A stretch of 64,000 nucleotides of DNA, from the NCBI RefSeq assembly GCF_045037415.1, contig NZ_CP173438.1; one strand, written 5' to 3'. A program made the translations under genes and the position numbers. A model generated the notes under the pieces. That model did no database searches, had not been told where the DNA came from, and worked only from the letters and a program-made list of their open reading frames with translations. Below, piece by piece: positions 32,142-32,950 of the stretch (position 1 is the first letter of the stretch; every line of letters starts with the position of its first letter). This stretch comes from Escherichia coli (GTDB lineage Bacteria > Pseudomonadota > Gammaproteobacteria > Enterobacterales > Enterobacteriaceae).

Positions 32142-32297
32142 TGGAGGAATTATGAAACACTGTCGGGAATCGTCTGAATGACGGGCACTTTTGCGAGCAC
32201 GCATCCAGTAATAACACATGAAACTATTTTATCTACGCGTTAGCGATAGACTGCTTGCATGGCGAAAGGAGATAAGCCGACGATTTCAGCGGGACGC

Positions 32298-32442
32298 TGA
32301 AACGGGAAAGCCCCTCCCGAGGAAGGGGCCATAAATAAGGAAAGGGTCATGATGAAGTGGATCATCATCGTGGTGCTCTTAGTCATAAGCTTCCCGGCTT
32401 ACTAAGACTACCAGGGCGGGGGAAACCCCGCTCAACCCTCAT
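32298..32442 (-). ncRNA. sibB: Sib-family antisense sRNA (type I antitoxin), mdtA-proximal copy
   Basis: Minus strand fully overlaps the ibs ORF and ends in hairpin ggccccttcctcgggaggggc plus a U-rich tract; ends are approximate; A/B naming is positional. Confidence 0.5.
32349..32405 (+). CDS. ibsB: Ibs-family type I toxin, 18 aa (MMKWIIIVVLLVISFPAY)
   Basis: 18-aa hydrophobic peptide beginning MMK and ending PAY, the Ibs signature; not in the ORF track because it is too short. Confidence 0.6.
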   Translation: MMKWIIIVVLLVISFPAY

Positions 32443-32626
32443 TCCTGAAAGTATGCCTTCACGGTCCAATTGTCAATCCGCAGACTTTGCAGTCTGCGAT
32501 CCTGCCAGCAAATATTCTTTGCGAGTCGTTACGCAATAATCACACTTGAAACTATTTTATCCGCAAGTCAGCGATAGACTGCATACAGGGCGAAAGGAGG
32601 TAAGCCGAAGATTTCAGCGGGACGCT

Positions 32627-32770
32627 GAAACGGGAAAGCCCCTCCCGAGGAAGGGGCCTTAAATAAGGAAAGGGTCATGATGAAGCTACTCATCATCGTG
32701 GTGCTCTTAGTCATTAGCTACCCAGCATACTAAGACTACCAGGGCGGGGGAAACCCCGCTCTACCCTCAC
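32627..32770 (-). ncRNA. sibA: Sib-family antisense sRNA (type I antitoxin), yegL-proximal copy
   Basis: Second copy of the same hairpin/terminator architecture antisense to the second ibs ORF; ends approximate. Confidence 0.5.
32677..32733 (+). CDS. ibsA: Ibs-family type I toxin, 18 aa (MMKLLIIVVLLVISYPAY)
   Basis: Second Ibs-type peptide; differs from copy 1 at 3 residues (W4L, I5L, F15Y). Confidence 0.6.
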   Translation: MMKLLIIVVLLVISYPAY

Positions 32771-32950
32771 TCCTGAAATTATGTCACTCAACCCTTGTTG
32801 TCAATCTGTAAGCCCACGTTCTTGCGAGGCGAATAGCAAAATCTTCTGCGCCGCCGGGCCTAATTCTGAAAGTTTCTTCGTTTGCTCTTATTTCATTATT
32901 GCAGTCGGTATGATACCGGACCTCAATAATTCTCTAAGAAAGGATTTCTT

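Follow-up and report, generated by a model that had tools for sequence, protein, structure and literature searches.

The intergenic region between mdtA and yegL of Escherichia coli contains two similar short units, each with an 18-codon open reading frame (ORF), and it raises the question of what these units are and whether the differences between their predicted peptides have a meaning. The region was studied in a stretch of 64,000 nucleotides from contig NZ_CP173438.1 (assembly GCF_045037415.1), which is referred to here as the window. An original prediction made from the letters of the window had proposed that the units, about 328 bp long, are tandem type I toxin-antitoxin units of the ibs/sib family. 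This identification has held up: both ORFs have an Rfam SIB_RNA match antisense to them, the locus shares its synteny with that of K-12, and the RefSeq annotation agrees. It is highly probable (about 0.95) that the units are E. coli type I toxin-antitoxin pairs of the ibs/sib family in which Sib is antisense to ibs, and that they represent one common haplotype, a Trp4 unit followed by a Tyr15 unit, of a recombining array with variable copy number. This reading is based on sequence identity to annotated loci, on the Rfam match and the RNA fold, and on synteny and the distribution in the population.

Identity of the two units

The two units form a tandem array at 32191..32828, to which no strand is assigned, within the 880-bp intergenic region 32071-32950. 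On one side is mdtA on the minus strand, ending at 32070, and on the other is yegL on the plus strand, starting at 32951. Copies of the heptamer TTGCGAG at 32191, 32519, and 32822 (spacings of 328 and 303) delimit the units. Unit 1 (32191-32518) is proximal to mdtA, and unit 2 (32519-32821) is proximal to yegL. They constitute a direct repeat with a start-to-start distance of 328 bp, in which 266 nt are 88% identical (32190-32455 versus 32518-32783), and across the full 328-column alignment the two units have 89% identity. Each unit has a hydrophobic ORF of 18 codons on the plus strand and a SIB_RNA match antisense to it on the minus strand. In an Rfam scan of the whole window, SIB_RNA (RF00113) was found at 32334-32476 in unit 1 (minus strand, 136.5 bits, E 5e-28) and at 32662-32804 in unit 2 (minus strand, 143.5 bits, E 1e-29). 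The gathering score of this family is 56, and both minus-strand matches cover model positions 1-147 of 147.

The position and the DNA of the array are shared with many other strains. K-12 MG1655 has sibB/ibsB and sibA/ibsA at the same site, and the window has the arrangement of this locus, with ibs on the strand opposite to mdtA and the units in the order of K-12 (as the reverse complement). Complete E. coli genomes such as SK1144 and GN05056 carry the 871-bp stretch 32080-32950 with 100% identity. Of the 5,426 complete E. coli genomes compared, 5,419 have a recognizable version of it, and identity is at least 99% in 545 records. In the RefSeq annotation of SK1144, both ORFs, on identical DNA between mdtA and yegL, are labelled "type I toxin-antitoxin system Ibs family toxin".

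The ORF of unit 1 (32349..32405, plus strand) encodes MMKWIIIVVLLVISFPAY, an IbsB-type peptide of 18 amino acids. It is the Trp4/Ile5 allele, found in RefSeq as WP_012767741.1 on identical DNA. The ORF of unit 2 (32677..32733, plus strand) encodes MMKLLIIVVLLVISYPAY, also IbsB-type and 18 amino acids long, which is the Tyr15 allele and WP_001386901.1 on identical DNA. A Shine-Dalgarno sequence, AAGGAAAGGG, precedes each ORF on the plus strand (32337-32346 in unit 1 and 32665-32674 in unit 2). As had been predicted, the 18-codon ORFs differ at three residues, with Trp at position 4 in the first copy. From unit 1 to unit 2 the changes are W4L, I5L, and F15Y, of which the last two (Ile/Leu and Phe/Tyr) are conservative. 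K-12 IbsB is identical to the unit 1 peptide at 16 of 18 residues and to the unit 2 peptide at 17 of 18. Both peptides have the features of Ibs toxins, namely a length of 18-19 codons, an MMK/R start, a hydrophobic core, a C terminus of the form S-F/Y-x-x-Y, and a location wholly inside the antisense Sib gene. Membership in the family rests on alignment to the K-12 Ibs peptides and on RefSeq annotation, as 18 amino acids are too short for Pfam or NCBIfam.

Each unit also contains, in its upstream part and overlapping the Sib terminator, an ORF of 38 amino acids (32218-32334 and 32546-32662, plus strand). These two ORFs were dismissed as probably not genes, because their start codon varies: it is ATG in one and TTG in the other, and where the ATG stands K-12 has AGG.

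A base-by-base alignment was made of the window with the K-12 intergenic region and with the five annotated K-12 Sib RNAs. By this alignment, unit 1 is assigned as the orthologue of K-12 ibsB/sibB. The sole coding change in its ORF relative to ibsB is TGGA for CTAC in codons 4-5, and there is one silent change, in codon 16. Unit 2 was considered as an orthologue of ibsA/sibA, and this was rejected. Its body is B-type throughout 32633-32768, only its flanks (the promoter and the distal flank) are A-type, and it is without the 19-amino-acid MMKHV... peptide or the SibA-type terminator. Thus, of the two K-12 pairs with which the original prediction had proposed to compare the copies, ibsB/sibB has its counterpart in unit 1, while unit 2 is not the counterpart of ibsA/sibA. 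On this evidence the strain of the window is judged to have no IbsA-type unit at the mdtA-yegL locus.

Sib RNAs, expression signals, and hairpins

The predicted Sib RNA of unit 1 extends over 32305..32440 on the minus strand (136 nt) and covers the ORF, the Shine-Dalgarno sequence, and part of the ibs 5' untranslated region. That of unit 2 is found at 32633..32768 on the minus strand (136 nt), and the ends of both were placed by alignment to annotated K-12 SibB. The predicted folds have energies of -61.0 kcal/mol (z = -4.2) for Sib1 and -60.4 kcal/mol (z = -3.8) for Sib2. Both minimum free energy folds match that of K-12 SibB, a multi-hairpin structure closed by P1, with a single-stranded J1/7 and P7. 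The parts of the fold are the P1 closing stem, a GC hairpin, a long hairpin with the TRD1 loop, an AUGAUGA...UCAUCAU hairpin (P6), the single-stranded anti-Shine-Dalgarno J1/7, and the terminator.

Putative promoters and terminators of both Sib RNAs are present on the minus strand. The Sib1 promoter (32450..32476) consists of a -35 box TTGACA (32476-32471), a 15-nt spacer, and a -10 box CATACT (32455-32450). Its hexamers are the same as those of K-12 sibB, and by homology it would be functional. The Sib2 promoter (32778..32804) has a -35 box TTGACA (32804-32799) and an extended -10 box TGA-CATAAT (32786-32778). Both of these hexamers are identical to those of K-12 sibA, suggesting that in unit 2 a sibA-type promoter drives a SibB-type RNA. 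The intrinsic terminator (P7) of Sib1 is at 32309..32330, with a GC hairpin at 32310-32329 whose 9-bp stem includes one G-U pair and is followed by UUUCC. That of Sib2 is at 32637-32658, with a GC hairpin at 32638-32657. The stem is unbroken (9 bp, one G-U) only in the minus-strand transcript, there being a C-A mismatch at that place on the plus strand, and the annotated 3' end of K-12 SibB is just past the GC hairpin. The earlier proposal that this hairpin is the terminator of an antisense RNA agrees with both observations.

A perfect 8-bp hairpin, TTTCAGCG-GGA-CGCTGAAA, had been reported ahead of each ORF, and it is found at 32284..32302 and 32612-32630 on the plus strand, upstream of ibs and just beyond the 3' end of Sib. 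All five ibs genes of K-12 have its core, CAGC...GCTG, conserved upstream of them. The ibsC mRNA extends 18 nt beyond SibC at its 5' end (Han 2010, PMC2943612), which places the equivalent ibsC hairpin at the extreme 5' end of its mRNA. In the window units the 8-bp hairpin may likewise form a 5'-terminal stem-loop of the ibs mRNA. Perfect 8-bp hairpins number three in the 880-bp intergenic region, compared with 0.09 expected from 2000 dinucleotide-preserving shuffles.

An 8-bp palindrome, CGCAGACT/AGTCTGCG (32479..32498, no strand assigned), is part of the spacer between the units and stands 3 bp upstream of the -35 box of Sib1. It had been described as belonging to copy 1 alone, and within the window it does occur after unit 1 only. 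The idea that it is special to copy 1 was nevertheless rejected, since it is a spacer element. In other strains a version of the palindrome follows every internal unit, with 7 of 8 Watson-Crick pairs in most, and the last unit of each array has a different flank in its place. Most other strains have a G at 32484, while the palindrome of the window is perfect. With G at 32484, the 8-bp stem survives only in plus-strand RNA by means of a G-U pair (-12.9 versus -8.0 kcal/mol), and this is a weak hint that the palindrome has a role in the ibs-sense transcript.

The proposed mechanism follows the SibC/ibsC model. The minus strand of each unit would give rise to a structured Sib RNA, about 136 nt long, running from the TTGACA/-10 promoter to the GC-rich terminator and perfectly complementary to the plus-strand ibs mRNA. 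First contact would be made through two exposed segments, the recognition domains TRD1 and TRD2. TRD1, in the P5 loop, would pair with the 3' half of the ibs ORF, and TRD2, in the single-stranded J1/7, would pair with the Shine-Dalgarno sequence and start codon with the help of the P6 loop. As the pairing spread, ribosome binding would be blocked and the duplex would be open to RNase III. Sib pairing is known to block ribosome binding, and the duplex is an RNase III substrate (review PMC4147584). An ibs mRNA that escaped would give rise to the 18-residue hydrophobic peptide, which would enter the inner membrane and lead to stasis, either by depolarization or by inhibiting the Fo part of ATP synthase, an effect that has been reported for the IbsA of Salmonella. 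Ibs overexpression depolarizes the membrane (review PMC8309996).

Several points weigh against the identification of the units as ibs/sib pairs. The transcription, toxicity, and repression predicted for them are extrapolated from experiments carried out in K-12 and Salmonella. Toxicity, seen as growth arrest or depolarization that is relieved by the cognate Sib, is known for K-12 IbsA, IbsC, and IbsE and for Salmonella IbsA (PMC2943612, PMC8309996, bioRxiv 10.1101/2025.05.26.656083); statements on toxicity and cross-reactivity, here and below, are drawn from Han 2010 and later reviews. K-12 IbsB is annotated just as a "putative toxic peptide", so the toxicity of IbsB-type peptides is less directly shown than that of IbsA, IbsC, and IbsE. 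A consensus scan of 32080-32950 called no sigma-70 promoter or intrinsic terminator for the units on either strand. It missed the Sib promoter because it permits spacers of 16-18 nt only and the Sib spacer is 15 nt, and it missed the Sib terminators because their U-tract is too short (3 U), making this negative result uninformative. The same scan of 32080-32950 identified no ibs promoter, and the candidate ibs -10 boxes, GATAAG (32271-32276) and GACGAT (32279-32284), are weak.

The sole sigma-70-like site called in the intergenic region is TTCAGA-18-CATAAT at 32149-32178 on the minus strand. It is about 80 bp upstream of the mdtA start and is a candidate mdtA promoter. Elsewhere in the window, the other Rfam matches above the gathering score are the CyaR/RyeE small RNA (18900-18985, minus strand, 101.8 bits), a TPP riboswitch (2461-2557, plus strand, 71.2 bits), a JUMPstart element (48060-48098, plus strand, 45.4 bits), and an algC RNA motif (62598-62647, plus strand, 78.2 bits). 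All of them are expected in this part of the E. coli chromosome.

Recognition regions and variation among strains

Specificity between Sib paralogues is set by variable segments of the RNA (PMC2943612). In SibC, TRD1 (+46 to +68) pairs within the ibsC ORF (Han 2010, PMC2943612), and the translation initiation region is the pairing partner of TRD2 (+99 to +115), which depends on P1 and the P6 loop (PMC2943612). The corresponding regions of the window are on the minus strand, and both TRDs were located from SibC by alignment. TRD1, the P5 loop predicted to pair with ibs codons 10-17, is at 32377..32399 in unit 1 and 32705-32727 in unit 2 (from SibC +46..+68), and 4 of its 23 nt differ between the units. 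The P6 loop, antisense to ibs codons 2-5, is at 32354..32363 in unit 1 and 32682-32691 in unit 2. It contains a 4-nt block, TGGA in unit 1 and CTAC in unit 2, that results in Trp4-Ile5 versus Leu4-Leu5. TRD2, the anti-Shine-Dalgarno and anti-start-codon segment in J1-7, is at 32331..32349 in unit 1 and 32659-32677 in unit 2 (from SibC +99..+115), and it differs by 1 nt (32331, A versus T). With a shared TRD2 and differing TRD1 and P6 loop, the two units provide a natural test of each element's share in discrimination.

The Trp4/Ile5 change affects both the P6 loop of Sib and the N-terminal part of the peptide, and it is likelier to be significant at the RNA level than at the peptide level. Mutagenesis of IbsC showed that the N-terminal part is largely dispensable for toxicity, yet position 5 mattered (PMC8309996). 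Residue 4 falls in the part corresponding to the dispensable segment.

The divergent peptides are also found in other strains. Ten further E. coli loci were read, and their units were named by residues 4, 5, and 15 in the order from mdtA to yegL. The window and SK1144 have WIF, LLY, and K-12 has LLF, IbsA. Two units are likewise present in EcN (LLF, LLF, with identical cores) and in 23AR1217 (ILY, RLW), and 100248 has WIY only. Strain 112 has ILY, WIF, IbsA; UTAK-22 has WIF, LLF, IbsA; O121 FWSEC0006 has LLF, LLF, and an IbsA with a premature stop; and SCAID WND2 has LLY, WIF, ILY, IbsA. In SF10, LLF is followed by an IS150 transposase gene. The arrays in these ten genomes therefore hold one to four units in shuffled order, one of them cut short by IS150. 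Among the sampled units residue 4 is L, W, I, R, or H and residue 15 is F, Y, or W, and all 18 of the IbsB-type ORFs in 11 genomes have stayed intact, although they carry many nucleotide changes. Exact copies of the 91-nt core of unit 1 (Trp4) are found in 1,012 complete-genome records and of that of unit 2 in 531. Lineage-specific duplications of ibs have been described, with seven Ibs genes in O157:H7 Sakai (Fozo 2010, PMC2887945). Together with the record counts, these duplications indicate that the divergent peptides are common alleles of a known polymorphic array, which is a recombining repeat of variable copy number.

Some further features were seen at this locus. The IbsA-type ORF with the premature stop in O121 FWSEC0006 (L010, 888-938) encodes 16 amino acids, the IS150 transposase gene of SF10 (L012, 1221-1768) comes directly after the single unit found, and the ORF of the single-unit array of 100248 (L007, 673-726) is annotated from the second Met. 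These are signs of decay or of annotation noise. Among records classed as plasmids, eight places match the 871-bp stretch, five the core of unit 1, and two the core of unit 2.

How the two units relate to each other can be viewed in several ways. They may be redundant, each Sib repressing both ibs mRNAs, with Trp4/Ile5 and Tyr15 as neutral polymorphism in a recombining repeat, and the chance of this is put a little short of even. TRD2 is 1 nt apart between the units, which share an identical 26-nt run across the Shine-Dalgarno sequence and the AUG. The TRD2 segment duplexes, calculated for isolated segments with intramolecular structure ignored, have similar energies in the non-cognate (-27.1 kcal/mol) and cognate (-27.4 and -27.3 kcal/mol) combinations. 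Either TRD of SibC represses alone, and a 25-bp TRD2 helix is enough to retarget SibC to ibsD (PMC2943612). Neighboring units with identical Sib/ibs cores exist in EcN (EcN_Sk, L005, 470-854) and O121 FWSEC0006 (L010, 232-615), so distinct neighbors are not required; on this ground the proposal of obligatory differences between the recognition regions of co-resident units was rejected. Redundancy is also supported by the position of residue 4 in the N-terminal part dispensable for IbsC toxicity (PMC8309996). The distribution of polymorphism, however, is uneven: of the 136 transcribed nt, the 52 nt that make up TRD1, the P6 loop, and TRD2 hold 11 of the 12 non-singleton variable sites (Fisher p = 1e-4, from a small and non-independent sample of 18 IbsB-type units). 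In addition, TRD2 function needs the P6 loop, which is 4 nt apart between the units, and for this reason cross-repression through TRD2 is plausible but not certain. The clustering of sites agrees with a remark of Han 2010 that places the recognition domains in the variable regions, and it speaks for the view that the units are partly orthogonal, with the P6-loop block and the four TRD1 substitutions as selected specificity determinants and Trp4 and Tyr15 as by-products of selection on the RNA. Partial orthogonality can be put forward tentatively. At codon 4 there are five or more states (L, W, I, R, H), every change being non-synonymous and in the P6 loop, and Han 2010 proposed the same role for variable regions (PMC2943612). 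The non-cognate TRD1 segment duplexes (-27.7 and -31.2 kcal/mol) are weaker than the cognate ones (-42.4 and -41.1 kcal/mol), a loss of 10-15 kcal/mol that is similar to SibC with ibsD, a pair shown not to cross-react (PMC2943612), although these energies too are for isolated segments and ignore intramolecular structure. Partial orthogonality is also opposed by the practically identical TRD2 proper and by the genomes with identical neighboring units.

A more specific idea is that the 4-nt block of codons 4-5 and the TRD1 substitutions are specificity "barcodes" kept diverse by selection in the copy-variable array, and this is rather doubtful. If it were true, adjacent IbsB-type modules would be partly orthogonal, and Trp4, Arg4, and Trp15 would be by-products of RNA selection. 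It would extend to the alleles of a single locus what Han 2010 proposed for the five K-12 paralogues. Whether the units are redundant or partly orthogonal, their identification as ibs/sib is not altered. It is very unlikely that one or both modules are decaying relics in which Sib is still made and the ibs ORF is unexpressed or non-toxic. The consensus scan recognized no ibs promoter, K-12 IbsB is only a putative toxin, and decay has occurred at the locus elsewhere, as shown by the premature stop in the IbsA-type ORF of O121 FWSEC0006 and the IS150 in SF10. On the other hand, both ORFs of the window are intact and follow a strong Shine-Dalgarno sequence at a suitable distance, the sampled IbsB-type ORFs are intact without exception, and both alleles are frequent.

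Relation to known systems

The ibs/sib system is already known: it has been described since 2008-2010, as have its mechanism and its occurrence in tandem at this locus. The exact alleles are already annotated in hundreds of public genomes, and the identification has little weight as a discovery. The useful outcome is a corrected annotation, with two IbsB-type modules and no IbsA-type module, and with coordinates for the Sib RNAs, promoters, terminators, and recognition domains.

One of the closest known systems is K-12 ibsB/sibB (b4668/b4437; QUAD1b, ryeD). It shares with unit 1 the position adjoining mdtA, and it has the same 136-nt Sib, 18-amino-acid peptide, terminator, 8-bp hairpin, spacer, and Sib promoter hexamers. 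K-12 SibB differs from unit 1 by 1 nt in TRD1 and by none in TRD2, but in the P6 loop it has CTAC (Leu4-Leu5) where unit 1 has TGGA (Trp4-Ile5). The P6 loop of unit 2 is identical to that of K-12 SibB. In contrast, unit 2 has four TRD1 substitutions relative to K-12 (Phe15Tyr and three silent changes) and is proximal to yegL. K-12 ibsA/sibA (b4667/b4436; QUAD1a, ryeC) resembles unit 2 in its position adjoining yegL, in its promoter, and in its distal flank. However, K-12 IbsA has 19 amino acids (MMKHVIILVILLVISFQAY), and its Sib body and terminator differ throughout from those of unit 2.

The ibsC/sibC pair (Han 2010) has the same P1-P7 fold, with TRD1 in the P5 loop and TRD2 in J1/7, and its Sib likewise extends over the whole ORF and the initiation region. 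It also has a conserved CAGC/GCTG hairpin located at, or close to, the 5' end of the ibs mRNA. It differs in its fau-serA locus and 19-amino-acid peptide, and 6-9 of 23 nt in TRD1 and 7-8 of 19 aligned columns in TRD2 are different. Salmonella Typhimurium IbsA/SibA belongs to the same toxin family and has the same antisense arrangement, but its toxin is 19 amino acids long. The only molecular target that has been proposed comes from this IbsA, which a 2025 preprint reports to inhibit the Fo part of ATP synthase (bioRxiv 10.1101/2025.05.26.656083). Its His3 and Leu11 are essential, and a basic residue 3 and Leu11 are present in all of the Ibs toxins compared (bioRxiv 10.1101/2025.05.26.656083). 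The predicted peptides of the window have Lys3 and Leu11, which fits this pattern. The ldr/rdl long direct repeats are similar in being type I toxin-antitoxin systems with tandem copies in one intergenic region and a copy number that varies among strains. Their sequence is unrelated, however, and they have a 35-amino-acid toxin and an antisense RNA over the 5' untranslated region rather than over the whole ORF.

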